IMG/VR virus record: IMGVR_UViG_3300029288_000071
Location: 1-64,000 of that record
Source: a virus
Lineage: Duplodnaviria; Caudoviricetes
Reading direction: 5' to 3' (one strand)
DNA length: 64,000 nt
The first letter of the stretch is position 1. Each line of letters opens with the position of its first letter. Shown here one piece after another: positions 14,004 through 36,689 of the stretch. The notes under the pieces are model-generated. The model saw nothing but the letters and a program-made list of their open reading frames with translations. It was not told the origin of the DNA and did no database searches. A program made the position numbers and the translations under genes.

Positions 14004-14213
14004 TTAAAATTTATCGTTAGAATTTCTATAAGAAATAGATATGACATATTTGCCATTTATATCGGTTAAATGACGTTTGCCGTGCCATATCTCAAACCAT
14101 CTAACCCCTGCCATTTCGCCGTTTTCCCATCTAACCTTAATTTCGGTTACACCATAACAGCCAACAGCGTAAGAGTAACCCCCTAATTCTATTTTATCAA
14201 TTATTTGTTTCAT
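14004..14213 (-). CDS. Hypothetical protein
   Basis: Start moved to MKQII (AGGAG SD). Confidence 0.6.
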   Translation of the reverse strand: MKQIIDKIELGGYSYAVGCYGVTEIKVRWENGEMAGVRWFEIWHGKRHLTDINGKYVISISYRNSNDKF

Positions 14214-14337
14214 ATCTCTCTCCTTTACTCCGGTGATAATTGATTCTTGCACTCCAAAAAGTATAGATCTGATTTTTCTCTGGTTCTCTTGGAACTTCAT
14301 ATCCCATTTTGACGAGCAAAGCATTAATTTCATTCAT
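14197..14337 (-). CDS. Small protein with N-terminal KMGY motif
   Basis: MNEINALLVKMGY; coupled to upstream stop. Confidence 0.45.
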   Translation of the reverse strand: MNEINALLVKMGYEVPREPEKNQIYTFWSARINYHRSKGERYETNN

Positions 14338-14644
14338 TAAATAAATCTCTAAATTGTGTAAGATTGTTTTTATACAAAAATTGCATTCTAAATCCATCAT
14401 CCCAAGTTTCTTCAGGATCTTTATCTTCGTAAATTTCAACAATACAAGGATATTGTGCAGGTTCTGGGATTATATATTTTCCATATTGATGTTCTTTTTT
14501 ATTAAACTCTTCAAGAGCATCTTTTAATAGTTGAGAAGTTTTAAATTTCTTCCAACCTGGAAAGTAAGGAGTTATAATTGATTTTCTGTAGTCAGAAAAA
14601 TCTTTGATCAAAATATATGTACTTTTTCGTTCTTGATAGTCCAT
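14330..14644 (-). CDS. Hypothetical protein
   Basis: ORF track; operon context. Confidence 0.6.
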   Translation of the reverse strand: MDYQERKSTYILIKDFSDYRKSIITPYFPGWKKFKTSQLLKDALEEFNKKEHQYGKYIIPEPAQYPCIVEIYEDKDPEETWDDGFRMQFLYKNNLTQFRDLFNE

Positions 14645-14657
14645 TGCAAATCTCTTT

Positions 14658-15551
14658 TTAGATTAATTTAACTATTTTTTCAAAACTCTTTTCTTTCAAA
14701 CCATTACCACTTCCAAATAATCGACTATCAATTTGATTGCTTTCAGGTTTTTTACTTCCTTTTTGAGTATCAGTATATTCTGCAATTGCATTATACAATT
14801 TCCAGAGATTGATATTCTTTTCTCTCATTAAGATTCCCATTATAGCATCAATAACGTTTTTGGTTCTTGTAGAAACAGAAGTTTTCTTGTCAGGATGGAG
14901 TAACTCTTCAACAAAAAGATAAGCATCTTTCAAATCAACTTCTTTTTCAGCCATCTTTTCAAATACTTTAACAATTTCAGCAAAAGCATTATGTGCAGCT
15001 TGCATTGTTCTTTTGCCTTCCATCATTTTATCATTAACTGAATGTGTATGCCGGATCTCTAATTCTGTATCTAAAGTAGGAAGAGTGAAAGGGAGGATAG
15101 CTTTTGTTTTTACATTCTCAATTACAAATTTTACAGTTACTTTTCTGGTGCCATTATGAGAATTAGAAAGGATAAGAGTTTTCTTTACAACATCTTCTTT
15201 CAAACCAACTGAATCACCAAGATGAGCTTTAACTGAGATAAGAGCACCATCTCTTAATTCATAGACTGATTTGAAGAGAACTTCATATTGATTTGCAACA
15301 CTATCAATGAATTCGAAAGCATCTTCATTCTGAACCACTGTATAAACTGAACCAACATCACCGATTGGAGTCATTGTATCCATTCGAATAGTAGCATAGC
15401 GGTCAAGAACTCGCTTTGAATCAAAACCGGGTTCTTTTTTGTTTTTAGGGAAAATGTGAGCAAAGATAGGATGTTTTTCAACTTTGAAATCAAGCTTTGC
15501 TGCTTTCAAAGCTTCTTTAGCAGTTACATATGATTCATTTACTAGTGTCAT
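14658..15551 (-). CDS. DUF932 family phage/plasmid protein
   Basis: Y.VVQNEDAFEF.D, LSNSHNG, IRHT, LW.LYNAI.EY, LFGSG..LK. Confidence 0.8.
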   Translation of the reverse strand: MTLVNESYVTAKEALKAAKLDFKVEKHPIFAHIFPKNKKEPGFDSKRVLDRYATIRMDTMTPIGDVGSVYTVVQNEDAFEFIDSVANQYEVLFKSVYELRDGALISVKAHLGDSVGLKEDVVKKTLILSNSHNGTRKVTVKFVIENVKTKAILPFTLPTLDTELEIRHTHSVNDKMMEGKRTMQAAHNAFAEIVKVFEKMAEKEVDLKDAYLFVEELLHPDKKTSVSTRTKNVIDAIMGILMREKNINLWKLYNAIAEYTDTQKGSKKPESNQIDSRLFGSGNGLKEKSFEKIVKLI

Positions 15552-15583
15552 TTTTAATTCTCCTTAATTTTTTATGTTAATAT

Positions 15584-15612
15584 AACTTAATATTAAGTTG
15601 ATTAAAAATAAA
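15584..15612 (-). promoter_or_regulatory. Early promoter, variant copy
   Basis: TTTATT-N17-TAAGTT. Confidence 0.5.
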
Positions 15613-15785
15613 CAGGCAGCAAAAATAAAGTTTTACTTTAGAATAGATCCATCTTTTAACTGTAGCCAAATTTGATAATTAACTTTAACAACTTTCACTG
15701 GTTTATCCCTATCAAAAGGCTGTATATACATACACCTAGAAGAATTAAAACTAATCTTGTAGAATCCATCATCTTTTTCTCCTAT

Positions 15786-15828
15786 AAAAAAGCAGGGAAA
15801 TTCGTTATTTTTACGAAATCCCTGCTTT
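15786..15828 (-). terminator. Terminator after the SPFH gene
   Basis: AAAGCAGGGA/TCCCTGCTTT stem plus T-run on minus. Confidence 0.75.
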
Positions 15829-15847
15829 ATAACTGACCGGTCGAGGA

Positions 15848-17074
15848 CTACTTTACTTTCATATCAAGATTCAACTGGTGAGCAGTCTGTGCTTGCCATA
15901 ACTGAATTAATTCATTAACACTTCCAGCCTGGCCACCACCCTTACCATCACCACCTACTACTAAAGGAACAAAATTACTCTTACCTTCTTTAAGAGCATC
16001 TGCATATCTGAAATTGACTTCTTTGTAAGCTTCAAGTTTCATCTCCAAAGCACCGTTAGCTTGCATAATAAGTCTTTGTTTTGCAGCTTCACCTTCACCT
16101 TCATAAATTTTTGCTTGTTTATTTTGAGCTTGAGCTAAAGCATTTAACTTAGCAACTTCAAGCTTTTGCTGAGCTTCTGTAACTTGCTGAGCTTTAATAA
16201 CTTCTTGTTCCCATTTAGCTTTTGCTGCATTAGCTTCACCTTCTTTGGCTGCAGTAATAGCTTTCTGTTCTGCTTCTTTAGCTTGTGCTACTGCAGTTTG
16301 AACTTGCATAGTAGCTTTTTGCTGTGTAGAGATTTGCTCTTCAACTGTGGGATCATATGCAATTTCATTGATTGAAAGGTTAAATGTTTTAACTCCAAAT
16401 AAACTTAAAGGAGAAACATCTTGGCGTAAGAAGTTACCTTTTTCATCAGTTAAAATTTTAACAACATTAACTGTTTTCAAAATTCCAGTCATAGGATCAG
16501 GAATTTTTTCTGGTTCTGTTGCTGTTTGATAAACTCCATTTTGAATCTGATCTTCAATATATCTTAACAAGTCAGTTCTTCGTGAAGAATAAGATTCAGC
16601 ACTAGAAATCATTGGACCAACCATATAAACTGATTTTTCAATTACAGTTCTTACAAGTTGTTGTTCAACTGCACTTTCACTTCCATATTTTCTGTGCATA
16701 GCAGTTAAAAATTCTTCAGTTAAAGGTTTTTCCCAAGCTAATGAACCAGAGATGTTTCCATGTCCACCATCATTAAATCGGACTTTAATAGATTGCTGAA
16801 GTTCAGACCCTTGGTCATCTTTACTAGAAAACCAATATTGAGATCGAAGCTTATACTTTGTAACTTCTCCAAAACCCTGCCATTTAACACCCGGAGTAGT
16901 TGACCATGTAAGAGTTCCAGCAAATGGTGATTGAACAACCATTAATTCTCCAGCATCCAAATCTTCCCAGAGTTTGAATGGAAGAACACTTAAAACAATT
17001 GCAGCAATAATAGCAAGCCCAAGATATACTGGGTTGATACCATTGCCAGATGTACCTGATGCATTGTTGTTCAT
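15848..17074 (-). CDS. SPFH/band-7 domain membrane protein
   Basis: N-terminal TM; VRFNDGG.G.ISG; AE-rich coiled coil. Start moved to MNNNASG. Confidence 0.8.
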   Translation of the reverse strand: MNNNASGTSGNGINPVYLGLAIIAAIVLSVLPFKLWEDLDAGELMVVQSPFAGTLTWSTTPGVKWQGFGEVTKYKLRSQYWFSSKDDQGSELQQSIKVRFNDGGHGNISGSLAWEKPLTEEFLTAMHRKYGSESAVEQQLVRTVIEKSVYMVGPMISSAESYSSRRTDLLRYIEDQIQNGVYQTATEPEKIPDPMTGILKTVNVVKILTDEKGNFLRQDVSPLSLFGVKTFNLSINEIAYDPTVEEQISTQQKATMQVQTAVAQAKEAEQKAITAAKEGEANAAKAKWEQEVIKAQQVTEAQQKLEVAKLNALAQAQNKQAKIYEGEGEAAKQRLIMQANGALEMKLEAYKEVNFRYADALKEGKSNFVPLVVGGDGKGGGQAGSVNELIQLWQAQTAHQLNLDMKVK

Positions 17075-17135
17075 ATTAATACCTTTCATATTGTTTGAAT
17101 TTTGTTGTAGATTGTTAGTTAAAATTGTTTCTTGT

Positions 17136-17396
17136 TCATTTTTTCTTTTTCTTTGCTGCTTTTTCTTCTTCAAATTTGGCTTTTTCATCATCGAGTTCTT
17201 TTTGAGTTTTCTCAATAGTTTTTTCGATTTCAAATTCTTCTTTTTTGTCATTGAGTTCTTCCAATTTATTTAATAATTTTTTTCTTCGTAAAAAAGGAAA
17301 AATTGGTGTACCATTTTTGATAGGCACAAAAATTTGTGTTAAAAGAATTAACACAAAAAGTAAAAAGAAAAGTATTTCTATTAATCTTAACGCCAT
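17136..17396 (-). CDS. Small membrane protein upstream of SPFH
   Basis: N-terminal TM, P.FPF motif, coiled-coil tail. Confidence 0.65.
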   Translation of the reverse strand: MALRLIEILFFLLFVLILLTQIFVPIKNGTPIFPFLRRKKLLNKLEELNDKKEEFEIEKTIEKTQKELDDEKAKFEEEKAAKKKKK

Positions 17397-17421
17397 AAAT
17401 TTATCTCCTTTTTGTTATTGT

Positions 17422-17748
17422 TTATTTTGATTTATTTTGATCTGGTCCAAATTGTGTAACTTTTTTGTCATTGTCTACCCATATCGTATATGGTGCAAAA
17501 TGATCTTTATCTATTTTAATACAAACATCATAACGATAAGTGAAACCCGACCAAAGAATTGGTGTTTCTTTTAAAAGTAATGCAGTAGCTTTGCCATCGC
17601 AAATATACTCATTTAGAGTATGATATTCTTCTTTAGATTGTTGTTTTGAAGGTGGCCACCATAGAAATAAACTAAGAAGTAATACAAAAATTATTGTAAA
17701 TAAAACTGCTGTTAAAATTTTAATTTTATGACTTATGTTCAGATTCAT
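17422..17748 (-). CDS. Hypothetical membrane-anchored protein
   Basis: N-terminal TM. Confidence 0.6.
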   Translation of the reverse strand: MNLNISHKIKILTAVLFTIIFVLLLSLFLWWPPSKQQSKEEYHTLNEYICDGKATALLLKETPILWSGFTYRYDVCIKIDKDHFAPYTIWVDNDKKVTQFGPDQNKSK

Positions 17749-17986
17749 ATTTAATATCTCTTAATACTGTGCAATAAGAATTAGCATCAACACATTCAAC
17801 AGCAATTTGATGTAAAGCTTGATATTGATTTTCTGATAATACTGTTAAGTCAGATATTGATTTTAAAAATTTTTCTACATTATAATCTAAATTAGTAGTG
17901 CACCAACAATATCTTAAAAGTTTTTCATAATCTGATTTATTATAAGTTTTAGATTTTCTTCTAACTACTTTAGCGATATTTTTCAT
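17726..17986 (-). CDS. Hypothetical protein
   Basis: Coupled ORF. Confidence 0.6.
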   Translation of the reverse strand: MKNIAKVVRRKSKTYNKSDYEKLLRYCWCTTNLDYNVEKFLKSISDLTVLSENQYQALHQIAVECVDANSYCTVLRDIKYESEHKS

Positions 17987-18232
17987 TTATACTTTGGGTG
18001 CAATGGATTGTTTCTGAACTATTGAAATTGGGAGTCTATGTATTTCTCCTGTTTTCACATCTTTAACTACTAATCCATTTTGTCGAACACGATATCCAAG
18101 TCCAAGAACTTCATATTCTTGTTCATTGTGTTTTATGATTGTTCCTAAAATTGTTTCTGGTATGTTCAGTCGGGCCCATTTCTTCTGAAAACGAAGTTTG
18201 GCTTCTTCAATTGTAATATCTTTGCAGGGCAT
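17987..18232 (-). CDS. Hypothetical protein, resembles the C-terminus of 24627..25085
   Basis: Shared YEVLG...D..T..I....I pattern. Confidence 0.6.
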   Translation of the reverse strand: MPCKDITIEEAKLRFQKKWARLNIPETILGTIIKHNEQEYEVLGLGYRVRQNGLVVKDVKTGEIHRLPISIVQKQSIAPKV

Positions 18233-18235
18233 ATG

Positions 18236-18448
18236 TTAATCTACTTTCTTTTCAGTGGGAGTTGTTTTTTGTTTACTAGCTTCAGTAGTTTCAACAAATT
18301 TTAAAATTGCGGGATAATGTTCTACAATTAATTTAGCTTTAGATAAACCAAAACCAAAAAATTGAGAGAGATTCATTACGGGGTTACCTTTGAATTCTGA
18401 ATATTGAGGATATTTCTTTTCTTTTTCTTCCATTTTTTCACCTTTCAT
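18236..18448 (-). CDS. Conserved-type phage hypothetical protein
   Basis: SEFKGNPV...FGFGLSKAKLI; first gene after promoter. Confidence 0.65.
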   Translation of the reverse strand: MKGEKMEEKEKKYPQYSEFKGNPVMNLSQFFGFGLSKAKLIVEHYPAILKFVETTEASKQKTTPTEKKVD

Positions 18449-18466
18449 TTAAATTTGAATTTATAC

Positions 18467-18495
18467 AATTTAATATTTAACTACTTAAGAGTAAA
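18467..18495 (-). promoter_or_regulatory. Early promoter
   Basis: TTTACT-N17-TAAATT. Confidence 0.75.
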
Positions 18496-18504
18496 TAAAA
18501 ATGC

Positions 18505-18885
18505 TTACTTTAATTTTTCTATTTCTTTCTTAAGTCTATCAAGATATGCGTCTTGAAGTGAATCAACTCTGCATTGTTCTCCATATAAAACACTTGTTTT
18601 TGATGAATCAGACTTTACATGTTTTTTATACTGAATAGTTAAATTTGTTAACTGAGATTTGACTGTGTCAATATTCAAGTTTAGCTTATTAATATCATTT
18701 CTTATCTTTGTAGTGTTATCTGCTTCATTCCAGAGAACAAAACCTCCAAGAAAAATTATTACAAGTAAAGTAAAAATGAAATTAAAATTTATAGTCCATT
18801 TCATATCAGAATCCTTTTCTGCTTCATCATTTTCATCAGCATCAAAGTATTGTTTTACTAGTGCTTTACGTTCTTCATCAGTCAT
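18505..18885 (-). CDS. Single-TM coiled-coil protein
   Basis: Hydrophobic helix followed by heptads. Confidence 0.6.
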   Translation of the reverse strand: MTDEERKALVKQYFDADENDEAEKDSDMKWTINFNFIFTLLVIIFLGGFVLWNEADNTTKIRNDINKLNLNIDTVKSQLTNLTIQYKKHVKSDSSKTSVLYGEQCRVDSLQDAYLDRLKKEIEKLK

Positions 18886-18904
18886 ATTAAATCTAAAGTA
18901 ATAC

Positions 18905-19225
18905 TTAACTACTTAATTGTAAACCTTTTTCTCTAAGTATTTGTTTTCTATATGAATTTAAGCTTGAACAACAACCAGCACCAAAAGCTGGATTCAATTC
19001 TGCTCCTGGAAGATCTTTAATTTTAGAGTATTGATCACACAGATTTGATTCAGATAAGAATTTACATTGCTTCTTTTGAAAATCCCAAATACCAAATGCA
19101 CAAGGTGCTACTTTACAACAATAACCGCAATTTATGCATTTATTTTTGACTTGTCTTTCGATGTGTCTCTCCAAGCTATATTTCTTACAGTTGTCCAAGG
19201 AATAACAACTAATCCAGTTTGACAA
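18905..19225 (-). CDS. YkgJ-like Cys-cluster (CxxCxxCC) protein
   Basis: CINCGYCC...C..L....LC..Y. Confidence 0.6.
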   Translation of the reverse strand: MSNWISCYSLDNCKKYSLERHIERQVKNKCINCGYCCKVAPCAFGIWDFQKKQCKFLSESNLCDQYSKIKDLPGAELNPAFGAGCCSSLNSYRKQILREKGLQLSS

Positions 19226-19348
19226 TAAACAATTTCTTCACAATCATTACAAAATGCTTCATAATACTTACTTATGTCTCCAGTTATTGCTGGCAAATTA
19301 TCTGTCATAGAAATTTCACTTAGATTTCTATGTTCACAAAGGTCTAAA

Positions 19349-19636
19349 CTATGACGAGTGACTATTATTTGCATAATAATCTCCTTCATTTTTTTTGCCT
19401 AACATTTTCACTTCAGAAATAAGTTTTCTTTCTGCATTTATCTTTCCTTGAACTTGAACACATTTTCCTACAATCCAACAAACAACTTGAAATATTATAA
19501 AAGATAGTGCTAATGATCCAATATCATAGAAATTTATTTTAAACAAATATCTAATTAGCCACAAAGGAATAGTATATGCTAAACCTCCCCAAGCAAATAC
19601 TTTAAGTAGTCTTCCTTCAAATTCTTGGATTGTCAT
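19349..19636 (-). CDS. Two-TM membrane protein
   Basis: Hydrophobic helices. Confidence 0.6.
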   Translation of the reverse strand: MTIQEFEGRLLKVFAWGGLAYTIPLWLIRYLFKINFYDIGSLALSFIIFQVVCWIVGKCVQVQGKINAERKLISEVKMLGKKNEGDYYANNSHSS

Positions 19637-20212: not shown

Positions 20213-20224
20213 TAGTAAGTTATT

Positions 20225-20491: not shown

Positions 20492-20492
20492 T

Positions 20493-21497: not shown

Positions 21498-21593
21498 TTA
21501 CACCTCTACTACTTATCTCTACTTTTATTTGTTTAATTCTTCTTCTATTGGTATATGTATTTCAACTTGATTTTGTTCCATTTTCTTTTCTTT

Positions 21594-22397
21594 CTATTTA
21601 GTCATAAGCATTCTTTGAACAAGAGCTTTTCCATTATATTCTATTCGAGCAAAATAAACACCGGAAGCTAACTTTGATCCATCAAATTTTACCACAATAG
21701 TTCCAATTGCATTTCCTGAATATAATGTTGCAACTTCTTGGCCTACAACATTGTATACTTTTAAAGAAACATAACCTGATTTTGGAACTGAAAATTGAAT
21801 ATGAGTGCTTGGGTTAAACGGATTCGGATAGTTTGCACTCAAATGTAATTTATTTGGAAGATTTCCACCATCTTCGACACTTGATGTTGGCGGAGTAGTT
21901 GTAGTATCTATAGGTGGAACACTTGTTGTATCAACAGGTGGATCTATTACTGGAGGCACTGAAGTTGTGTCAACAGGTGGATCTATTACTGGAGGCTCTA
22001 TTACTGGAGGCACTGAAATTATTTGAACAGTTGGATAATAGTATGCCAAAGTTGCATCATTATCTATTTGTTTCAATCGATAAGTGTTACCTTCATATGT
22101 ACTTCTAAGAGCACATTCATAAGAATATGAAGCTCCACCATTATCTGGGCTTTTGAATCTTAATCTTCCTGAAACCATATTATCAGGAATTGCAAGCCAA
22201 TTTCCAGGCTCATTGTAACAATTCCATTCTAGAAGAAATCCGTAACTATTTGTTTCAGAAGAAGTAGTCCATTCAAAAATAACTTTTGAATTAACTGAGT
22301 CAATTGTCTGAACAAATGAAGACATTTGAACTCCAGCAAAAACAAGATTAAGTCCAACTAGACTTAACAAAACCAGTAACAAAGATAACTTTTTCAT
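21594..22397 (-). CDS. Secreted protein with T9SS type A-like C-terminal sorting domain
   Basis: Signal peptide MKKLSLLL...VFA; W.T.SETN..GF...YRLKQID.D domain; Pro-rich linker; NYPNPFNPST...LKVYN..GQEVATL...LASGVYF...MLMTK. Confidence 0.85.
   Translation of the reverse strand: MKKLSLLLVLLSLVGLNLVFAGVQMSSFVQTIDSVNSKVIFEWTTSSETNSYGFLLEWNCYNEPGNWLAIPDNMVSGRLRFKSPDNGGASYSYECALRSTYEGNTYRLKQIDNDATLAYYYPTVQIISVPPVIEPPVIDPPVDTTSVPPVIDPPVDTTSVPPIDTTTTPPTSSVEDGGNLPNKLHLSANYPNPFNPSTHIQFSVPKSGYVSLKVYNVVGQEVATLYSGNAIGTIVVKFDGSKLASGVYFARIEYNGKALVQRMLMTK
21915..22014 (-). repeat. Coding repeats PPVI(D/E)PPVDTTSV
   Basis: Direct repeats of tcaacaggtggatctattactggaggc. Confidence 0.8.
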
Positions 22398-22439
22398 TGT
22401 AAATCTCCTTAAGTATATGATTATCAAATTGTTATAGAT

Positions 22440-22468
22440 AATTTAATACTTAACTACTTAACAGTAAA
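22440..22468 (-). promoter_or_regulatory. Early promoter of the T9SS cargo gene
   Basis: TTTACT-GTTAAGTAGTTAAGTAT-TAAATT. Confidence 0.8.
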
Positions 22469-23677: not shown

Positions 23678-23920
23678 TCAATTTTTTTCATTTTTTGATT
23701 CTTCAATTTTGATACATTTGATCCAATTATCTCCTTTTTCTCCATGAGAAATACAATTTTTACAATCAAAACAAGCTGCTGAACCTATCCGTATTTGATT
23801 TTGATTGTTCTTAGGTTCTGGACAAAAATCTAAACAAAAATGATTTTCTTTACGATAATAATGTTTTTTTAAAGTATCATAACCTATTTTACTCATTAAT
23901 ATGCGTATTTTTTTGTTCAT
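23678..23920 (-). CDS. Cys-rich protein with N-terminal KIGY motif
   Basis: IRILMSKIGY; IGSAACFDC. Confidence 0.6.
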   Translation of the reverse strand: MNKKIRILMSKIGYDTLKKHYYRKENHFCLDFCPEPKNNQNQIRIGSAACFDCKNCISHGEKGDNWIKCIKIEESKNEKN

Positions 23921-25450: not shown

Positions 25451-25729
25451 TCAATGTTCAGGATAACCTAAGTTCTTCATAAGTTTTTTAACTTCAAAAT
25501 CTTCACAATTTTTCATAAAGCATTGAGCTTGTACATTATCAAAATAAAAACCAGTTCTTATTTCTTGTACACTGATTAATTTAACTTCTCCTTTTGAAAT
25601 AAGATTAATATTTTTTACACAATATAGTTCACCTATAGTTAAATCAAAGTGAAATTTTCCTTCTTTGTCTGCAATTCCTGTAAAGCCCCGCTCAATACAT
25701 CTAAGATATTGACCAATTTTTATTTGCAT
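25451..25729 (-). CDS. Hypothetical protein with C-terminal GY tag
   Basis: ...VKKLMKNLGYPEH*. Confidence 0.6.
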   Translation of the reverse strand: MQIKIGQYLRCIERGFTGIADKEGKFHFDLTIGELYCVKNINLISKGEVKLISVQEIRTGFYFDNVQAQCFMKNCEDFEVKKLMKNLGYPEH

Positions 25730-26073
25730 GATTCATAACCTAAATTTTTTAAGTGTTTCTTAATTGGATCTCTTTCAATTATTTCAATATCATTTTTTGT
25801 AATATGATAAGAATGAGGAAAAATTTTGTTCACTATTCTTTTATCTGGTTTAAATCGTTTTACTCCACAGTACTTACAATATTGAATCTTTCTATGTTGA
25901 ACTAATGGATATAAAGGAGCTAATGCTTTAATAGGATTTACCCAAGAATGTCTTTTGTGCTTTTTCTTTGGGTATGGAACTCTGCAATAAATACATCTTT
26001 TTGATTTAGATTTTCCAAAGACTTTCCAACGATGACGTTTAGTTATTCCATTTATTTGAATACAAGGTTTCAT
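25720..26073 (-). CDS. His/Cys protein with C-terminal GY tag
   Basis: H.W..CxxC repeats; ...IKKHLKNLGYESCK*. Confidence 0.6.
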   Translation of the reverse strand: MKPCIQINGITKRHRWKVFGKSKSKRCIYCRVPYPKKKHKRHSWVNPIKALAPLYPLVQHRKIQYCKYCGVKRFKPDKRIVNKIFPHSYHITKNDIEIIERDPIKKHLKNLGYESCK

Positions 26074-26363
26074 TTATATCCCATTTTTGCTGTTAAAAAT
26101 TTAATTTCACAATTTATGAGATCACTTTCTTCTTTAATTATAACACAATCTCGTTTTAAAATTATCCCACAACCATTAGTATCAACTGGAATACACTTAT
26201 CCAAATTTAATTTTTGTTCAACAAGAAAATCAACAGATGTTTCATTTCCATTTCTAACTTTAAAAGTATGAAGAACATATTTGTTATACCAACAATTTTT
26301 ACCTTCATAAGCAGTATTTTGAAATATTTTTATGAAGAAAAAATCATTGCTGTTCATATCCAA
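26070..26363 (-). CDS. Hypothetical protein with C-terminal GY tag
   Basis: ...IKFLTAKMGYK*. Confidence 0.6.
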   Translation of the reverse strand: MDMNSNDFFFIKIFQNTAYEGKNCWYNKYVLHTFKVRNGNETSVDFLVEQKLNLDKCIPVDTNGCGIILKRDCVIIKEESDLINCEIKFLTAKMGYK

Positions 26364-26775
26364 TTCTTTCCATTAATTTAAACACATTGATATCTTCAGG
26401 ATATTTCATTTCACCACTTTCAATACTATAATCAATAGTCATATTTTTACTAAGAATCATATAACTTCCATTTTCTCTTAAATAAATTGCTCCATATTTG
26501 TGTAAGCTTTGAATTTTACTAAGCAAAATTTTCATTTCTAACTCAGAGCTAACTTCTAAACCAGATTTTCCAAAATTATTTTGATAAACTTTCATCCAAT
26601 TGCCCCAAACAGTTTTAGAACCTCCTTCTTTTATAAAGTCATAAATTCCTTTTTTTACTTCTTGTTGCATGAAAATTTCTGAATGTTCTATTAACAATTC
26701 TTCATTATCACATTTCAACATAAAAGGATAACTAATTTGAGTTTTAGGATCAAATATTTTTTCAAAAGTATACAT
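26344..26775 (-). CDS. Hypothetical protein with C-terminal GY tag
   Basis: Start moved to MYTFEK; ...VFKLMERIGYEQQ*. Confidence 0.6.
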   Translation of the reverse strand: MYTFEKIFDPKTQISYPFMLKCDNEELLIEHSEIFMQQEVKKGIYDFIKEGGSKTVWGNWMKVYQNNFGKSGLEVSSELEMKILLSKIQSLHKYGAIYLRENGSYMILSKNMTIDYSIESGEMKYPEDINVFKLMERIGYEQQ

Positions 26776-26785
26776 TTTGTTTTCT

Positions 26786-26977
26786 TCAATCTTCTTCTTT
26801 TTCAAATTCTCCATCTGCGTCAATATGCTTAGGGGGCCACCCATTTTTTGAAATATCTAAATGGCGTAGATATCGTCTTATAAGCTTATAGGGAATTTGA
26901 AAAATTATCTCAATAATCATAACAAATCCTATAAACCTCCAAAAATCTCCAAATATCCATTTTAAAAAATCAAGCAT
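26786..26977 (-). CDS. Small membrane protein
   Basis: TM helix; GWPP.H.DADG. Confidence 0.65.
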   Translation of the reverse strand: MLDFLKWIFGDFWRFIGFVMIIEIIFQIPYKLIRRYLRHLDISKNGWPPKHIDADGEFEKEED

Positions 26978-26989
26978 AATATTCCTTTC

Positions 26990-27316
26990 CTAACAAGTTA
27001 CTATTCTTGAATCATTTTTATAGCCTATTCTCTCTAAAGATGCAGCAATTTCTAATTCTTCCGTATTCAGTAACTTATGTTCTGTTTTACTTTCCAAAAT
27101 AACAAATTCTCCAAAATATCTTTCAAACACAGACAAAAGTACAATGTAAGTACCTGATTTCATTTCATTTAAAATCTTTGAAGTTTCTTCAGGACTTAAT
27201 CCCATAGAATTAGCTAATCTTTTAGCATATCCTAAAAGAACAAAAGCATTACCATCTGGCCCATCTAAATCAATAATAAGCTTTTGTGAAGAATTAGATT
27301 TTTTTGTTCTTAACAT
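26990..27316 (-). CDS. Conserved-type phage protein with appended GY tag
   Basis: IDLDGPDGNAFVLLG; ...IAASLERIGY. Confidence 0.7.
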   Translation of the reverse strand: MLRTKKSNSSQKLIIDLDGPDGNAFVLLGYAKRLANSMGLSPEETSKILNEMKSGTYIVLLSVFERYFGEFVILESKTEHKLLNTEELEIAASLERIGYKNDSRIVTC

Positions 27317-27342: not shown

Positions 27343-27371
27343 AATCTAATACTTAACAGTGATAAAGTAAA
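27343..27371 (-). promoter_or_regulatory. Early promoter
   Basis: TTTACT-N17-TAGATT. Confidence 0.75.
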
Positions 27372-28053: not shown

Positions 28054-28311
28054 TTAAGTTTTACTTACATCATATCCCATTTTCTTCATCAATACTAAAG
28101 TATGAAGATCATCTTTATTTAACTTGCTAAAATCTTCTACTCCCAGTTTTATTAGTTCTGCTCGGATCTTTCCAAATTCTAACCCAAACAGAAAGTTCAA
28201 ATCTTTAACAATTTGTCCAACTTCAGTAACCAATTGTTCAACTTCTTGATCACTCAAATCTTTAACATACTTTTCAATTTCAGCATCAGTATATTTCTTC
28301 TTCTCATTCAT
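28054..28311 (-). CDS. Hypothetical protein with C-terminal GY tag
   Basis: ...LVLMKKMGYDVSKT*. Confidence 0.6.
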   Translation of the reverse strand: MNEKKKYTDAEIEKYVKDLSDQEVEQLVTEVGQIVKDLNFLFGLEFGKIRAELIKLGVEDFSKLNKDDLHTLVLMKKMGYDVSKT

Positions 28312-30345: not shown

Positions 30346-30366
30346 TTTTTGTTTTCCTTTTTCATT

Positions 30367-30450: not shown

Positions 30451-30491
30451 ATAGAGTTATGAGCTTAAGCTGGATTCTATAGTAGAGAATT

Positions 30492-31088: not shown

Positions 31089-31681
31089 TAGATTACCTTT
31101 CCATCAGGTGTTACATTGCGAAGCGAAGCTTTTGCCTGTGAAAGCATGTCTTGGACTTCTTTAGGAAGTTCATCAAAGTTTTCTGCTAATCCTTTTACAG
31201 TGCCGATTTCAATTGTTACTTTGAAGATCTCTTCAAATGCTTCATCTCCAAGAGCTTTCATTAGCTTTTTGATGATTTCATCAGAAATAGTTTTACCGGT
31301 GCGTTTTACTTCAAGTTTGCGAGATTCAACAAAGTGCTTTTCATAGTCTTTGTCGAGTTTGCGCAGGATGGGTTCTTGATCAGATGGAAGGTTAGAGAAT
31401 TTGTCCTGGAAAATTATCATGCATCCATCGGTCTTTTCACCTTCACACATGATAGAAGAAGCATATTGATGATTTGTTCGGGCTTTATTATAAACTTTAC
31501 GAGCTTCATCAATAAGAGCTCCTTCAGTCGAATCGTATTGAGCTTTAAGATCTTCCAATTCTTTCTTCATACCGACTGTTTGGTCAACTAAAGATTTCAT
31601 ATTGGAAAGATTGGGCTTATCGGATTTCTTCGAAGATGAAGAAGCAATTTTCTGTAGTTTTTTGCTTAATTCTGAAGCCAT
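31088..31681 (-). CDS. Hypothetical protein
   Basis: AAGGAG SD; first gene after promoter. Confidence 0.7.
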   Translation of the reverse strand: MASELSKKLQKIASSSSKKSDKPNLSNMKSLVDQTVGMKKELEDLKAQYDSTEGALIDEARKVYNKARTNHQYASSIMCEGEKTDGCMIIFQDKFSNLPSDQEPILRKLDKDYEKHFVESRKLEVKRTGKTISDEIIKKLMKALGDEAFEEIFKVTIEIGTVKGLAENFDELPKEVQDMLSQAKASLRNVTPDGKVI

Positions 31682-31717
31682 TGTATACTCCTTAAGTTTT
31701 AATTTATTTGATAGTAT

Positions 31718-31746
31718 AATCTAATACTTAACAACTTAACAGTAAA
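31718..31746 (-). promoter_or_regulatory. Early promoter
   Basis: TTTACT-GTTAAGTTGTTAAGTAT-TAGATT. Confidence 0.8.
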
Positions 31747-31760
31747 TAGGCTATAGAAAT

Positions 31761-31808
31761 AAAAAGGGAGGAACAGTTGGAAAATAGCAAACTTAACTGT
31801 CCTCCCTC
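31761..31808 (-). terminator. Terminator after the AAA ATPase
   Basis: AGGGAGGACAGTT/AACTGTTCCTCCCT plus T-run. Confidence 0.7.
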
Positions 31809-31841
31809 GGAGTAACCGTCACTCGGCCATGAGCAACGATA

Positions 31842-33149
31842 CTAGGGCTTAACTGGGACTTTTGAACCGCTACTCAAATTCTCAAATTGATCAAAGTAAT
31901 TAGCTTTACCATCATTTCTGAGTTGTTCTTTCATCTTATTTCTGAACTGGTATAGATCACTTACATTATTCCAAATTCGAGCAAATGTCTCTTTAGGAAG
32001 AACATGTTCAACCAATTCAATTACTCTCTGTTTAGTTGACTTTGTGATATATTTGTAAGTACCAAGTTGCTTGGTTAAAAGCTGCTCAAGTGTAGCTAAT
32101 TCTGAAGCATTCATTTTATCAACTTCAGCTTTAGCAACTTCTTTACTCCATCTCATATAGCGAATATAATTTTCAAAGAGTTCGCTAGCTTTACCGGCCT
32201 CAGTTGACATTGCTGCTTCTTTCTTAGCCTGAGTGCTTTTCATCTTCACGGTGCAAAGTCTGAATATTTCTGCAGCATCACCACCAACAAATGTTGCAGC
32301 ACAATCTCTCATTTCTGATTCAGTAAATTTCTCTCTATTTTTAACAAAAAACTTCGAAAAATGATGCCAAGATCTACGATTAGGATGGGGTTGATTTAAG
32401 AACTCTAAATCAGATTTCTTTGGAGGATCAGCTAAATTCTTTTGAGTAGAGATAGTATGAATCAACTCTTCACAAAGCTCTCCACTCTTCTTTCCCCATT
32501 GTAACCATTCATCAACTGTAGGACAATACTTTACGGTTTTGAATCTACTACGAAATGCAGGATCTCCTTCGGTGATAGTATAGATTTCCATATTGTCATT
32601 GCAAGCAGCAAAGATAAAGCAACGAGGATGAACTTTACTACCATTCATTCTCCGATCATATACTAATTCGAACATAGCCTGTTGGACATCTTTAGTGCCC
32701 CTGTTATATTCATCCGCAAAGAAGCAAATGAACTTATAAGGTTGACCAATTTTGTCCTTAGAGCGAATCTTCGCTAACATATCATTCTCATCTCCCATAA
32801 CCCCTAATTGAGAAAGATCTTTAACGAAAGCATTGCGAATCAAATCAGGCTTAATGTGCTGGAATCTCTTATCTATTACTAGATCTTTAGTAGCTTCTTT
32901 AACTTCATTAGAAACTGCAGGAATATCTACTATAGCAGGCATTCCCAAAATATCTCCAAGATCTCTTTGCCCTAATCTTAAGTCAATAAGAAATCCATCT
33001 TGTAATAAGCAAACTTCGGTAACAATTGCAGATTTACCAATCCCATGAGGACCTTCTATCATAAAACTGAAATCCTGTTCTTCAGGTGACAGGACATCTG
33101 CAAGGATGAATTTCAACAGGAGGGAATGATTCATATCATTGTTGGCCAT
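31842..33149 (-). CDS. MoxR/dynein-related AAA+ ATPase
   Basis: Walker A GPHGIGKS; DLRL....GD.LG.P; Walker B FFADEYNR; DPAFRSRF; P..RSW. Confidence 0.85.
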   Translation of the reverse strand: MANNDMNHSLLLKFILADVLSPEEQDFSFMIEGPHGIGKSAIVTEVCLLQDGFLIDLRLGQRDLGDILGMPAIVDIPAVSNEVKEATKDLVIDKRFQHIKPDLIRNAFVKDLSQLGVMGDENDMLAKIRSKDKIGQPYKFICFFADEYNRGTKDVQQAMFELVYDRRMNGSKVHPRCFIFAACNDNMEIYTITEGDPAFRSRFKTVKYCPTVDEWLQWGKKSGELCEELIHTISTQKNLADPPKKSDLEFLNQPHPNRRSWHHFSKFFVKNREKFTESEMRDCAATFVGGDAAEIFRLCTVKMKSTQAKKEAAMSTEAGKASELFENYIRYMRWSKEVAKAEVDKMNASELATLEQLLTKQLGTYKYITKSTKQRVIELVEHVLPKETFARIWNNVSDLYQFRNKMKEQLRNDGKANYFDQFENLSSGSKVPVKP

Positions 33150-33182
33150 CGTTAAGTTACTCCGTTAAGTTTAAATTAAATA

Positions 33183-33383
33183 TTAGTGTTCAATTGCTGA
33201 AAAACTGAATTCAGGAAACTTTGATTCCATGTGCTTCTGAAAATCCTTCTTACTTCTTCGTCTTATAATGCGATTATGTGTTTGTTTAGCTTTCTTTGAA
33301 TTTCTACCAGAACTGCAACAAGGACATTTGATACCACCAGGGCCGCAATGAGCTTTAGTTACTTCTTTCTTATATAGGGCCAT
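33183..33383 (-). CDS. Small basic Cys protein
   Basis: GPGGIKCPCC; first gene after promoter. Confidence 0.65.
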   Translation of the reverse strand: MALYKKEVTKAHCGPGGIKCPCCSSGRNSKKAKQTHNRIIRRRSKKDFQKHMESKFPEFSFSAIEH

Positions 33384-33412
33384 TTAAGTTACTCCTTCAA
33401 ATTGTTAAGTAT

Positions 33413-33441
33413 AATCTAAAACTTAATCAATTCAAAGTAAA
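33413..33441 (-). promoter_or_regulatory. Early promoter
   Basis: TTTACT-N17-TAGATT. Confidence 0.75.
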
Positions 33442-33893
33442 CATCTCACAGCAATTAATTACAGGACACTCAAATATACCCTAAATGCTAATTACAGTTT
33501 AGCAACCAATCGCATATCATGTATAGTGCTGTCAACTATTTACTTTGATCAAAATTTGATTAGATAGCTGAATTTGGTTTATAGAGACGAGAGTTGAGAC
33601 TAAGAAATGCTCTAGTAATTCGAATTGCGGGAGTTCTCGTAGTACGGTTTGATAATCAGCAACTTGTGTATGATCATGGAGAGATTGGAGAAAAAGAAAG
33701 TGCGGGAACTCCCTGAAAAATTTGAAAAAGCGATAGCGTAAGCGTTTGGTGCAGAAAACAACTAGAAATTTAATAGGGAGAAAGTGCAGTCAGCTAGACT
33801 TAGGCTTCTCAAGCAGAGGGCTGTCTTTCTGCGCATGACTTCTGTTAAGTAGTTAGCAGACAGAGAGCTGACTTCCGGAGATTTGGCTTCTCG

Positions 33894-34145
33894 TTAAGTA
33901 AGTTTTATCTTGTTATATCCCATCTTATACATGAGTGCTTCAATAGAATCATCATTTAACTTTTCAAATCGGTCTGCTCTGAATGGATAATGGATCCCTT
34001 CAATTCGGAGCATGATTCCATCACTTTCAATTGAATCTACTACTAATACTCGATTTTCTATTTCTTTGTAAGTAGTATTTTGTGATGAAGAAGCTTTACT
34101 GTTTATGCATTTAACAAGATTTCCAGGTTGAAGCATAATTTTCAT
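33894..34145 (-). CDS. SH3-like small protein with C-terminal GY tag
   Basis: PGNLVKCIN...FRADRF; ...IEALMYKMGY. Confidence 0.65.
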   Translation of the reverse strand: MKIMLQPGNLVKCINSKASSSQNTTYKEIENRVLVVDSIESDGIMLRIEGIHYPFRADRFEKLNDDSIEALMYKMGYNKIKLT

Positions 34146-34177
34146 TTTATTCAGTTCCTTATATAAATGTTAAGTAT

Positions 34178-34206
34178 AATCTAATACTTTATATAATAAA
34201 AGTAAA
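34178..34206 (-). promoter_or_regulatory. Early promoter
   Basis: TTTACT-N17-TAGATT. Confidence 0.7.
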
Positions 34207-34307
34207 TAGGAGACTGAAATATAAACAGAGTCAAAAGATGATTTTACCTAGAGGCGCGGTAAAACGCGCATTTTTGCTATCATGCCCCGCGGTAGAATAG
34301 ATAAGGG

Positions 34308-34535
34308 TTAGGCTTTTCGATGTATGTTGAATTCAGTAAAGATCTTATTTGCTGCGATACGCAGAGTATGTTTAACTGATTCATCAGGAGTTACTACTTT
34401 AAGCCAGTTATTTAGCCATTTTGCAAATTCAGCTGGAGTAAGAGGTTTTGATAGAGTTATACAGTCTGGACAGGGAGCATTTATACCTGAATAGTTATGT
34501 TTAGAGCATGTATAAACTGTTTGGTTATTGTTCAT
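34308..34535 (-). CDS. Hypothetical protein (C..H...CPDC)
   Basis: ORF track. Confidence 0.55.
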   Translation of the reverse strand: MNNNQTVYTCSKHNYSGINAPCPDCITLSKPLTPAEFAKWLNNWLKVVTPDESVKHTLRIAANKIFTEFNIHRKA

Positions 34536-34881
34536 TGATAAAATCAGTCAATTTTTTTATCTGGCTTCCGTCCAACTTTTTATTCGCCACGGTTCTTAAC
34601 AACATCGGGACACCTTCCATCGCTTTCAATTTTTTTGCGATATCGTTCGGCAGCATCTTGTTATCTAATGAGGCTTGATCCTTAAGCGCCTTTGCCGATT
34701 TAGTATCAAGTTCCAACGCCTCATTTATTGCATCTATGAGTTCCTCTTTTTGAGGAGGCAAGACAGACTCACGCTCAACTCTGGATAGATATGCGACATC
34801 AATATCGGATCGCAGGGCAAGTTCACGTAAAGTGATTTCCTTTTGAGTCCGAATATCTCGTAACATTTGACCGTATCCCAT
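34525..34881 (-). CDS. XRE-family HTH transcriptional regulator
   Basis: GQMLRDIR..KEITLRELA....IDVAYLSRVER; GC-richer than neighbours. Start moved to MGYGQ. Confidence 0.8.
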   Translation of the reverse strand: MGYGQMLRDIRTQKEITLRELALRSDIDVAYLSRVERESVLPPQKEELIDAINEALELDTKSAKALKDQASLDNKMLPNDIAKKLKAMEGVPMLLRTVANKKLDGSQIKKLTDFINEQ

Positions 34882-34958
34882 AACATTCTCCGTATATATG
34901 GTTGTTGTTGTAGTGTTACTACAACATAACAAATCCTTCCGAATATGTCAAGTGCTTT

Positions 34959-35552
34959 TTATTTCGTATTTCTTCGATGGCATCCATACAAAACAATAAT
35001 CTCCTCATCAATGACTTTTAATTGATAACATTCATTTAATGGCATCACTTGTAACAGAACTTTTCCTGTACTTGGTTTAGTTCCGTTCTCTCTAAAGTCT
35101 TCAGGTTCATAATTTTCATAACATCTAATTGCTTCTTCTTTAGTTTCTCTCCAGAAACCCCAAGCACCCACATTATCTACTTTAACAATTATAGCAAAAG
35201 AACCGATTGGTTTTGCTAAGTTATTTTCTACTAAGTGTTCAACTAAAAATTGGAACTGTATTTGTAACCTTTGTGTAGGTGTAGCTATTGATGTTATTGT
35301 ACCCATTTTATCCATTGTACCCATTTTATCCATTAAAGCATCAATTGTAGTAGTATCTTTATCAACTTCAATACAATCAGCTTTTTGGATTAGCATTATG
35401 CTAAATGAAGGGTTATTACTATTAATAACTTTCCAGCAATCTTGACCATCATGATTTATATGCTTATAAACTTGAAAGACTTGATTTATTTTATCTGCAT
35501 ACCAATAGCTAGACAGAGCTGATTTTATTATTTTTACAAATGTAGTTGCCAT
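34959..35552 (-). CDS. Hypothetical, probably fused, protein
   Basis: Internal IDALMDKMGTMDKMGT from an 18-nt tandem duplication at 35296-35331. Confidence 0.6.
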   Translation of the reverse strand: MATTFVKIIKSALSSYWYADKINQVFQVYKHINHDGQDCWKVINSNNPSFSIMLIQKADCIEVDKDTTTIDALMDKMGTMDKMGTITSIATPTQRLQIQFQFLVEHLVENNLAKPIGSFAIIVKVDNVGAWGFWRETKEEAIRCYENYEPEDFRENGTKPSTGKVLLQVMPLNECYQLKVIDEEIIVLYGCHRRNTK

Positions 35553-35641
35553 TTGTTTTCTTTTAATTTAAGATCAATTACATCTTTAGCTTTTGATTCT
35601 GCTTGAAGTTCTGTTTTATATCCTGTCATAGAAATTTTAAA

Positions 35642-35747
35642 TTAAACAGAGATTTATAATCTATTTATTGTGATTTTTATCGGCATAAGCCGCATTACAA
35701 TATCGGGAGTTTACAACATGTATATCATGTTTTCGTCCTCTGTTTAA
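35642..35747 (-). ncRNA. Structured repeat element, copy A (divergent)
   Basis: AAACAGAG/CTCTGTTT closing stem; GCGGC-TTAT-GCCG-ATAAAA. Strand inferred from flanking genes. Confidence 0.45.
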
Positions 35748-35765
35748 AGAATGTCTCTGTTATTC

Positions 35766-36320
35766 TTATACTGAAATACCTACTATCATAATTATCAGAA
35801 AAATCATGTAAGCAACAAAATGAGCCCATCTAACCATACTTAAATCCAAACTTGATCTATCACCATTGATAGCAATATTTGCTACTGCATATTCTCTTTT
35901 ACCCCATAATGAGAATCCTTCTCGTTTAACTACTATTCTATGATTAACACAGTTTCTATAAAAAACAAACATAAAATAAATAGTCCCAAATATAAATAGT
36001 GGTAAAAGGACTACTGCTCTTAGAGCTGTACCGCCCATGACTTTCCAAGCAATAATAAACATTGTAAATCTACCTGCTGGTGATTCACTAAATTTATTTA
36101 CTTCTTCATTAAGAGCAGATAAACCTTCTTTCATTGCTACTCCAACTTCTTTTCCAACACCAACCCAAGAACTTACTGATTGTTTACTCTGTTCAGATTG
36201 TGCTAAGGCTTTTTGCTGCTCTGTTAGTTGGGATTCTTTCAATGTGTATGTCTTTTCTTGTTGAGCAAAAAGACAATTAAAAAGCAATAATACACAAAAC
36301 AAAAATATTGTAGTTTTCAT
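35766..36320 (-). CDS. Signal-peptide membrane protein
   Basis: WVG.GKEVG.A...F..SP.G...M..IAWK; TM helices. Confidence 0.7.
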   Translation of the reverse strand: MKTTIFLFCVLLLFNCLFAQQEKTYTLKESQLTEQQKALAQSEQSKQSVSSWVGVGKEVGVAMKEGLSALNEEVNKFSESPAGRFTMFIIAWKVMGGTALRAVVLLPLFIFGTIYFMFVFYRNCVNHRIVVKREGFSLWGKREYAVANIAINGDRSSLDLSMVRWAHFVAYMIFLIIMIVGISV

Positions 36321-36335
36321 ATTTTAATCCTTTTT

Positions 36336-36689
36336 TTAATTATTTGTTTTTTCATCTAGAATTTCATACCCTATTTTGCGCATAATTTGTTGTATTAAAT
36401 CTAATTTTTTAACTTTAAATCCATTTACAAATTGATCAGATCCAATTTCTCCTGTAAATGTTTTAGCTTGTCCAACCCAATTATATGTTTTTCTCTGCTT
36501 TTCATCTTCTTCAGAAAAATAAAACCATTGATTTGTAGCTCTATTATTTTTGAAGCGTGTTGCACAAGCACAAACTTTAAGTTCTGTATAAGTTATTCCG
36601 TTTACGTTTTTGTCTGAAATATCTACAACATGATAAAGAAAAAATTGATTATCATGTATCTCTATAACAGAATTTAAAGTGACTGCCAT
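36336..36689 (-). CDS. Hypothetical protein with C-terminal GY tag
   Basis: ...IQQIMRKIGYEILDEK. Confidence 0.6.
   Translation of the reverse strand: MAVTLNSVIEIHDNQFFLYHVVDISDKNVNGITYTELKVCACATRFKNNRATNQWFYFSEEDEKQRKTYNWVGQAKTFTGEIGSDQFVNGFKVKKLDLIQQIMRKIGYEILDEKTNN

Follow-up and report, generated by a model that had tools for sequence, protein, structure and literature searches.

A shared Gly-Tyr peptide tag, predicted to be helical, on small proteins of an uncultured T4-like phage

We identified that an uncultured 207-kb T4-like phage attaches the same 12-residue peptide, modelled as a short helix and ending in Gly-Tyr, to about 33 otherwise unrelated small and probably early proteins, with 13 of these lying in the 64,000-nucleotide stretch of its genome analyzed here (the window). 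The peptide behaves like a portable address label, although its putative reader has not been identified. A position matrix found 33 copies scoring at least 16 bits in the whole genome, with a clear gap to the noise, at 11.5 bits or less. In 500 residue shuffles of a crude proteome of 316 genes, a regular expression for the tag gave 30 hits against 0.25 in shuffled proteins, and 24 against 0.02 within 10 residues of a C-terminus, excluding chance. Roughly 1 gene in 10 of this phage carries the tag.

The sequence-only reading, which had listed 11 copies of a shared terminal Gly-Tyr peptide in the window, was confirmed in its observation, and the tag proved more widespread than it had described. 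All 11 copies are present on the minus (coding) strand, and its claim that 5 carriers lie within 2 kb is correct (25451-27316). However, the coordinates it gave were the low ends of the open reading frames (ORFs) and not of the motif, and the tag is near-terminal rather than strictly terminal, with 0-10 residues following Gly-Tyr in the C-terminal carriers. We found 2 further copies in the window, a weak internal one in the protein at 55866-56177 and a C-terminal one in the carrier at 63893-64000 (Table 1). The copy at 14197 lies in a 46-codon ORF, and codon-usage log-odds support this frame (+0.57 per codon over the first 22 codons) against the overlapping 109-codon frame (-0.61). Across the genome, 27 of 34 copies are C-terminal, 3 are N-terminal, and 4 are internal, in linkers.

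Table 1. Tag carriers and promoter-like sites in the window
Position	Strand	Feature	Tag (12-mer)	Score (bits)	Remarks
14197-14337	-	46-codon ORF, N-terminal tag	14299-14334		A 70-codon ORF starts at 14213 behind a strong Shine-Dalgarno site
23678-23920	-	80-residue Cys-rich carrier, N-terminal tag	23879-23914	26.2	
25451-25729	-	92-residue carrier	25463-25498	25.4	Tag 3 residues before the stop
25720-26073	-	117-residue Cys-pair carrier, degenerate tag	25735-25770	23.3	Next ATG lies 9 nt after the Gly codon
26070-26357	-	95-residue carrier	26076-26111	25.1	ATGA overlap with the next gene
26344-26844	-	166-residue carrier (143 from a later ATG)	26356-26391	21.0	Next gene's ATG lies inside the Tyr-Glu codons
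26990-27316	-	108-residue carrier: phrog_1933 body (residues 8-68) plus a roughly 37-residue tail that holds the tag	27020-27055		First gene of the five-carrier operon
27343-27371	-	Sigma-70-like promoter consensus (fixed 29-nt layout)			Heads the operon of 5 carriers at 27316-25451
28054-28311	-	85-residue carrier	28072-28107	26.8	
33894-34145	-	83-residue carrier, beta-rich in the model	33915-33950	32.1	
34178-34206	-	Promoter consensus			Directly upstream of carrier 33894-34145
34959-35552	-	197-residue protein, internal degenerate tag	35316-35351		Gly-Thr instead of Gly-Tyr; exact 18-nt tandem duplication; probably a tagged mini-gene fused to a downstream domain
36336-36689	-	117-residue carrier	36366-36401	25.5	Tag 9 residues before the stop
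55866-56177	-	103-residue protein, internal tag	55944-55979	16.2	Weakest accepted tag
63893-64000	-	3' part of an 84-residue carrier (63893-64147 in the genome), C-terminal tag	63911-63946	28.9	

Conservation was found at the peptide level. The Gly, Lys, Tyr, and first Ile codons inside the tag match genome codon usage (p = 0.8, 0.8, 0.09, and 0.35, respectively), with Gly encoded by GGA in 16, GGT in 14, GGC in 3, and GGG in 1 case, whereas Leu (p = 0.046) and the second Ile (p = 0.03) deviate slightly but still use several codons. The sequence-only reading had cautioned that the end of the tag can double as a Shine-Dalgarno/start for a coupled downstream gene, and this caveat is real but partial. 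In 7 of the 27 C-terminal tags, the next ATG lies inside the Tyr-Asp/Glu codons, and in 5 it lies 6-9 nt after the Gly codon, whereas 15 had no start within 19 nt (19-240 nt), and the N-terminal and internal tags had none. Asp or Glu after Tyr is commoner in the coupled cases, and some constraint on the last codons, especially the Asp/Glu, may therefore be translational. Motif frequency equal to background and conservation at nucleotide level only had been set beforehand as conditions that would refute the tag; the frequency is about 100 times background, and conservation is not at nucleotide level.

To determine whether the carriers are otherwise related, we compared their bodies with the tag masked, and no similarity between bodies was detected by BLASTP, tblastn, or phmmer. 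One body, in carrier 26990-27316, belongs to phrog_1933, a widespread 71-residue family, and the others were assigned to no family. This carrier has 247 homologues, and of 120 of these, 87 are 71-72 residues long and none of the 119 others carries the tag; the homologue in phage Melnitz stops where the tail begins. At 90% identity clustering, all but 1 of 10 carriers were singletons. Two modelled bodies differ in fold class. In carrier 26990-27316, the model shows a helix at residues 85-96 after an unstructured linker (76-84) on a confident helical body, and in carrier 33894-34145, a helix at residues 68-74 follows a low-confidence linker on a beta-rich body, although confidence in the tag helices themselves is only moderate or low (pLDDT 63-70 and about 50, respectively). 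A Foldseek search with the phrog_1933 carrier model gave no match. The tag has a hydrophobic moment of 0.63 against 0.41 for the same residues shuffled and a mean net charge of +1.1, and its information is spread over 10-12 residues with helical periodicity. The 4 hydrophobic positions hold 41 Met, 41 Ile, 34 Leu, and no Phe or Trp in 128 cells, Met fills 1 position in 27 of 32 tags, and Gly-Tyr is present in 32 of the 32 tags profiled.

We searched for the tag beyond this genome. HMMER over 1.84 billion representative proteins returned only this phage's carriers, 4 proteins from related short contigs, and 1 unrelated repeat protein. In 3 orthologous pairs with one relative (L214), 38 of 48 tag residues are identical (79%) against 78 of 235 body residues (33%), and in 4 homologues of a conserved protein with 2 tags in tandem, sharing under 50% identity overall, both tags are almost invariant. 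A strict pattern from a narrowed tag alignment occurred only 52 times in all of IMG/VR, and none of these was related. A degenerate DNA pattern scan of IMG/VR gave at least 120 single hits, almost all chance and out of context, and a word-indexed profile search with the tag alignment returned only this genome and 1 near-identical protein. Megablast of 20 kb against the phage collection gave no match. The flanks of the capsid genes of 80 T4-like relatives (964 kb) held no C-terminal tag, and the close relative L129, whose capsid protein is 92% identical, has a different, tag-free insert after the capsid gene. No relatives of the AAA_5 gene at 31842-33149 were found in IMG/VR, and a JGI metagenome scan with the double-tag family returned a single 1.5-kb contig, precluding phylogenetic profiling for a reader. 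A PDB sequence search with the double tag returned only designed coiled coils, which were not significant, and a literature search for the tag sequence returned no paper.

Carriers sit behind sigma-70-like promoters and are thus probably early genes, although the promoter class is assigned from a consensus only. We found 13 sites with an identical 29-nt sigma-70-like layout against 2.5 in shuffles, heading the five-carrier operon, carrier 33894-34145, and 2 carriers at 72 kb, and no minus-strand terminator-like site was found inside the five-carrier operon. At least 8 carriers lie in operons directly behind such host-type promoters. The T4 late promoter TATAAATA is not used here, with 3 sites upstream of genes, and a generic sigma-70 scan was uninformative (61 sites found against 66 expected).

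We consider, with moderate confidence, that the tag is a self-contained docking peptide. In this view, an Asp/Pro-type N-cap precedes a two-turn amphipathic helix, I-x-x-L-M-K-K-[IM], closed by an invariant Gly-Tyr and carried on a flexible linker at either end of small, structurally unrelated proteins, and through it about 33 proteins, probably made early, would all bind the same groove of 1 protein partner, giving them a common place or fate in the infected cell. The analysis establishes that the tag is real, portable, selected as a peptide, restricted to 1 phage lineage, and found only on small proteins of no known function; that it binds a protein rather than a membrane, that there is a single reader (a host hub or an unrecognised phage protein), and that it acts early are inferences, and docking itself is inferred from the pattern of conservation. 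All tags could descend from 1 ancestral tail, such that part of the similarity is shared history, although the randomised synonymous sites argue that this history is old. The interpretation of the sequence-only reading, a portable docking, targeting, or degron signal read by 1 hub protein, was partly supported: the motif is a portable peptide module, but nothing here links it to the MoxR/vWA genes, to a degradation route, or to capsid import, which it had proposed alongside a host factor. If the docking reading holds, 1 interaction may organise a large share of the accessory proteome of this phage, and finding the reader would assign a place or fate to about 33 proteins of unknown function at once and show whether large phages other than T4 use peptide addressing, and by what route. 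A short portable tag of this kind could also serve as a handle for delivering proteins in phage engineering.

Among the alternatives, capsid loading survives best but remains unlikely. Here the tag would dock the mini-proteins to the inside of the assembling prohead (scaffold core or inner face of the capsid protein), to be packaged and injected into the next cell, as T4 internal proteins are through their targeting sequence, or as encapsulin cargo is loaded through C-terminal peptides. The phage is T4-like with an HK97-fold gp23-type capsid protein, 3 tagged proteins outside the window are built from capsid-protein segments, and in 22 relatives the scaffold protein ends in a conserved helix-plus-Gly-hydrophobic motif that resembles the tag by eye. 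However, this resemblance is not significant (profile-profile score of 8.5 against a null of 7.0 +/- 1.4, p = 0.12); the phage's own scaffold tail ranks at the 77th percentile of untagged C-termini, while some relatives' tails reach the top 1-5%, and a tag HMM did not retrieve scaffold tails among 4501 ORF segments of relatives. There is no consistent T4-type [LI]-x-E cleavage site in the 20 residues beside the tag, with 11 observed against 6.9 expected and 14 of 25 C-terminal carriers having none. Carriers lie behind sigma-70-like promoters in accessory regions, and none lies in the structural gene block. Complex prediction of the capsid protein with the double-tag protein scored 0.00 in a run without controls and is not evidence either way.

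A more speculative possibility, also unlikely but not excluded, is a modular bait-plus-handle system, in which about 30 small binder or decoy domains each capture a different host or phage target, including copies of the most conserved capsid-protein segments, the kind of feature that abortive-infection sensors recognise, and the common handle delivers all of them to 1 effector for sequestration, destruction, or loading into the capsid.

A membrane anchor is doubtful. A peripheral membrane-targeting amphipathic helix of the MinD/FtsA type would bring small phage proteins to the inner face of the cytoplasmic membrane without a protein reader, and the short terminal amphipathic helix with 2 adjacent basic residues, a Gly, and an interfacial Tyr, its net charge and high hydrophobic moment, and the tandem double-tag protein, which would fit binding by avidity, are compatible with this. 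However, membrane helices tolerate any bulky hydrophobic residue, and a single eight-residue helix binds lipid weakly, whereas the strict residue choice here points to a shaped pocket. Also improbable is a degron or adaptor-binding peptide that lets a protease (host Lon, Clp, or FtsH, or a phage factor) remove early proteins, or whatever they have bound, at a set time. The tags are terminal, exposed, and linker-borne on many small, probably early proteins, and some bodies are fragments of late head proteins that might act as baits, but the flexible position shows that recognition does not need a free terminus as ssrA-type degrons do, the motif is not known to resemble any degron, and no protease was linked to it. 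A by-product of gene packing or repeated DNA, with a portable Shine-Dalgarno/start cassette or a recombination joint and an incidental peptide, is largely refuted by the codon usage and the start codon positions described above.

Compared with short linear docking motifs read by hubs, including sliding-clamp-binding motifs, the SSB C-terminal tip, and the FtsZ C-terminal peptide, the tag shares the arrangement in which 1 short motif at either terminus of many unrelated proteins brings them to a single hub, but its sequence matches none of these motifs, no replication protein of this phage carries it, and no replication or other large protein ends in a tag-like sequence. The membrane-targeting helices of MinD and FtsA are likewise short C-terminal amphipathic basic helices ending near Gly and attached through a linker, but those are single orthologous tails and not a label shared by about 33 unrelated proteins. 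In the staphylococcal phage 80alpha scaffold and its mimic SaPI1 CpmB, the P22 scaffold helix-turn-helix, and encapsulin cargo-loading peptides, a C-terminal short helix plus hook, or a short peptide, docks different proteins to the inner face of an HK97-fold shell; the scaffold proteins of this phage clade also end in a conserved motif, but its similarity to the tag is not statistically supported, and the carriers are not in the head gene block. The closest analogue is the capsid targeting sequence (CTS) of the phage T4 internal proteins IPI, IPII, IPIII, and Alt (PMC3012670). The T4 CTS comprises about 10 residues at the extreme N-terminus of the precursor, is removed by the prohead protease, and sits on proteins that are packaged, whereas the tag described here is mostly C-terminal, has no consistent protease site, sits on genes behind sigma-70-like promoters, and has a different sequence. 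In both, a short terminal peptide, portable between unrelated bodies, is the only thing shared by a diverse, fast-evolving set of small accessory proteins of a T4-type phage.

The window, the first 64 kb of a single 207,030-bp contig, has about 30% G+C, and nearly all of its genes lie on the minus strand. We identified a gp23-type major capsid gene whose closest matches, at 37%, were Flavobacterium and Microcystis T4-like phages and an uncultured 484-kb phage. A secreted protein with a type IX secretion C-terminal sorting domain (Por_Secre_tail, E = 1.4e-9) hints at a Bacteroidota/FCB host. In a close relative, L129, whose capsid protein is 92% identical, the 2.9 kb after the capsid gene is replaced by an unrelated 667-codon ORF, marking a hypervariable spot.

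A six-frame search recovered every one of the 11 peptides listed in the sequence-only reading, all in minus-strand ORFs, and the motif is not confined to the 14-37 kb interval. The observation was confirmed and extended. The consensus is Asp/x, Pro/Glu/Lys, Ile, x, x, Leu, Met, Lys-like, Lys, Ile/Met, Gly, Tyr, with 27 bits of information in all, Gly-Tyr being present in 32 of the 32 tags profiled and Met in 27 of 32. A position matrix built from the copies separated 33 instances (16-35 bits) from everything else (11.5 bits or less), with about 1.4 hits of 9 bits or more expected in shuffled proteins, and the sub-threshold tag-like helices of 10-11.5 bits may be decayed tags or chance. In a crude proteome of 316 genes, a simple regular expression gave 30 hits against 0.25 in 500 shuffles and, within 10 residues of a C-terminus, 24 against 0.02. 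All carriers have 197 residues or fewer, and 13 of them lie in the window, including a weak internal copy and a C-terminal copy in addition to the 11 reported. Three details differed from the sequence-only reading: the tag is followed by 0-10 residues rather than ending the protein, the coordinates reported were ORF ends, and the 14197 copy belongs to a 46-codon ORF, whose frame is supported by codon usage while the overlapping 109-codon frame is not.

We analyzed codon choice and downstream start codons to determine whether conservation is only at the nucleotide level and follows start codons, the outcome named in advance as refuting a peptide motif, and found that it does not. The Gly codon was GGA in 16, GGT in 14, GGC in 3, and GGG in 1 of the tags, as in the genome at large (P = 0.82), and the Lys, Tyr, and first Ile codons also matched genome usage. 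The Leu position uses 6 codons, and its mix and that of the second Ile differed slightly from genome usage (P = 0.046 and 0.03, respectively). Out of 27 C-terminal tags, 7 had the ATG of the next gene inside the Tyr-Asp/Glu codons, 5 had the ATG 6-9 nt after the Gly codon, and 15 had the next start 19-240 nt away. Coupling to a downstream gene therefore explains part of the preference for Asp/Glu after Tyr but not the motif, and it cannot explain the N-terminal and internal copies.

With the tag masked, the 33 bodies showed no similarity to each other by BLASTP, tblastn, or phmmer, and apart from capsid, portal, and phrog_1933 matches, Pfam and PHROGs gave only weak, scattered hits. One carrier (26990-27316) provides a natural experiment, with residues 8-68 matching phrog_1933 over the whole 71-position profile (E = 2e-12). 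Among 120 of its 247 homologues, 87 are 71-72 residues long, and none of the 120 except the window's own protein has a tag. The homologue in Methylophilales phage Melnitz (MZ577097) stops exactly where the window protein continues with a linker and the tag. An AlphaFold2 model of this carrier built with 46 sequences gave a confident helical body, an unstructured stretch at residues 76-84, and a helix at residues 85-96 that ends just before Gly-Tyr. A single-sequence model of carrier 33894-34145, which has low confidence, showed a beta-rich body, a low-confidence linker, and a helix over the tag, and the 2 modelled bodies therefore differ in predicted fold class. The internal copy in ORF 34959-35552 looks like a fusion, as its degenerate tag has Gly-Thr and an exact 18-nt tandem duplication, and the C-terminal half of the protein shares a short similar stretch with 2 stand-alone genes.

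We searched 1.84 billion representative proteins exhaustively by HMMER with the tag profile, which returned 13 proteins at E of 0.001 or less, with 8 being this genome's own carriers, 4 coming from other assemblies, and 1 being an unrelated repeat protein. The 4 foreign proteins lie on short contigs from ENA, Logan, and a wood metagenome, where they stand in the same small module as in this genome: ribonucleotide reductase, then a protein with 2 tags in tandem, then tagged mini-proteins made of capsid-protein segments. In this genome those segments are 45-57% identical to the phage's own major capsid protein, and the module is conserved in relatives (loci L211-L214). A GIY-YIG-type and a NUMOD-repeat homing endonuclease gene lie directly downstream of the tagged capsid-fragment genes, and the second of these, together with the 95-codon ORF before it, is nearly identical in L212. 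A 20-kb IMG/VR contig of a relative from the same landfill sample as L129 has 4 tags in this module, and between that relative and this genome 38 of 48 tag residues are identical against 78 of 235 other residues. All of these relatives are represented by short contigs. In the double-tag family, both tags are almost invariant while the rest is not alignable. Elsewhere the tag is absent, with 52 pattern matches in all of IMG/VR, none of them related, and none beside the capsid genes of 80 T4-like relatives. The tag is thus a lineage-specific, strongly selected peptide.

The T4 late promoter is not used in this genome. Intergenic k-mer enrichment led to a highly conserved 29-nt consensus with a sigma-70-like layout, consisting of a TTTACT-type -35 element, a fixed 17-nt spacer, and a TA[AG]ATT-type -10 element. 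We identified 13 identically spaced minus-strand copies in the genome, 10 of them in the window and several sharing an identical spacer sequence, and 19 matches in all on both strands, against 2.5 per strand in shuffles. One copy heads the run of 5 carriers, which contains no terminator-like site on that strand, another heads carrier 33894-34145, and one outside the window heads 2 carriers. No carrier lies in the structural block. The carriers are therefore probably early genes, although this is inferred from a consensus alone.

Coordinates of the tag carriers, promoter-like sites, and neighboring features (window positions unless marked otherwise; L005 is a locus of the same genome)
Feature	Position	Strand	Remark
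Scaffold (gp22-like) gene	10269-11186	+	just upstream of the capsid gene, also in loci L129-L205 of relatives
Major capsid gene, gp23-type	11232-12950	+	
Hypervariable spot after the capsid gene	12951-15857		corresponds to 11738-13741 of relative L129
46-codon tag carrier	14197 (ORF end)	-	
Protein with type IX secretion sorting domain	21594-22427		
Run of 5 carriers	27316-25451	-	headed by promoter-like site 27343-27371
Carrier with phrog_1933 body	26990-27316	-	
Beta-rich carrier (low-confidence model)	33894-34145	-	headed by promoter-like site 34178-34206
ORF with internal degenerate tag	34959-35552	-	18-nt tandem duplication at 35316-35351
Weak internal tag	55944-55979		
C-terminal tag	63911-63946		
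Sigma-70-like promoter consensus	18467-18495	-	
Sigma-70-like promoter consensus	22440-22468	-	
Sigma-70-like promoter consensus	27343-27371	-	
Sigma-70-like promoter consensus	31718-31746	-	
Sigma-70-like promoter consensus	33413-33441	-	
Sigma-70-like promoter consensus	34178-34206	-	
Sigma-70-like promoter consensus	40154-40182	-	
Sigma-70-like promoter consensus	47012-47040	-	
Sigma-70-like promoter consensus	49116-49144	-	
Sigma-70-like promoter consensus	51119-51147	-	
Promoter consensus heading 2 carriers	genome 72.8 kb		
Tagged capsid-fragment mini-proteins and double-tag protein	genome 139652-140484 (L005 3652-4484) and 151735-152259 (L005 15735-16259)		double-tag protein follows ribonucleotide reductase
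GIY-YIG-type and NUMOD-repeat homing endonuclease genes	genome 137825-139367 (L005 1825-3367)		
Sub-threshold tag-like helices	31088-31681; 51168-51437; genome 119332-119604; genome 135101-135622		

The interpretation of the motif as a portable docking or address peptide was partly supported. Its portability and its selection as a peptide are borne out by the analysis, whereas docking to a reader, the identity of any such reader, and the purpose served remain matters of inference. The idea that the tag loads its carriers into the capsid was tested in 3 ways. No consistent T4-type protease site was found beside the tag. In 22 T4-like relatives, the scaffold protein ends in one conserved helix-Ala-Gly-Leu/Ile motif, Asp/Asn-Arg-hydrophobic-x-Lys/Arg-Leu-Ala-Gly-Leu/Ile, followed by 0-4 residues, which is probably its capsid-docking end and looks like the tag by eye, but the resemblance is not significant (P = 0.12). 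A complex prediction of the capsid protein with the double-tag protein yielded no verdict. With regard to lipid binding, the tag helix is amphipathic, with a hydrophobic moment of 0.63 against 0.41 for the same residues shuffled, but residue choice is far stricter than lipid binding needs, with no Phe or Trp in 128 hydrophobic cells, Met at one site in 27 of 32 tags, and invariant Gly-Tyr, which favors a shaped protein pocket. No large or known-function protein of the phage carries the tag, so it is not the phage's clamp- or replisome-docking motif.

Peptide addressing of phage accessory proteins is already known, and the tag, as interpreted here, would be a further form of it; a full-text literature search for the tag sequence found no paper. 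The closest described system is the T4 capsid targeting sequence, the only feature shared by the diverse internal proteins (PMC3012670). The design is the same, with one short terminal label on many unrelated accessory proteins, but the tag differs from the T4 sequence in its position and in lacking a consistent protease site, and any packaging of its carriers would be inferred by analogy only. Scaffold-end mimics, encapsulin loading peptides, MinD-type membrane helices, and hub-binding linear motifs are analogues of mechanism, not families to which this tag can be assigned.
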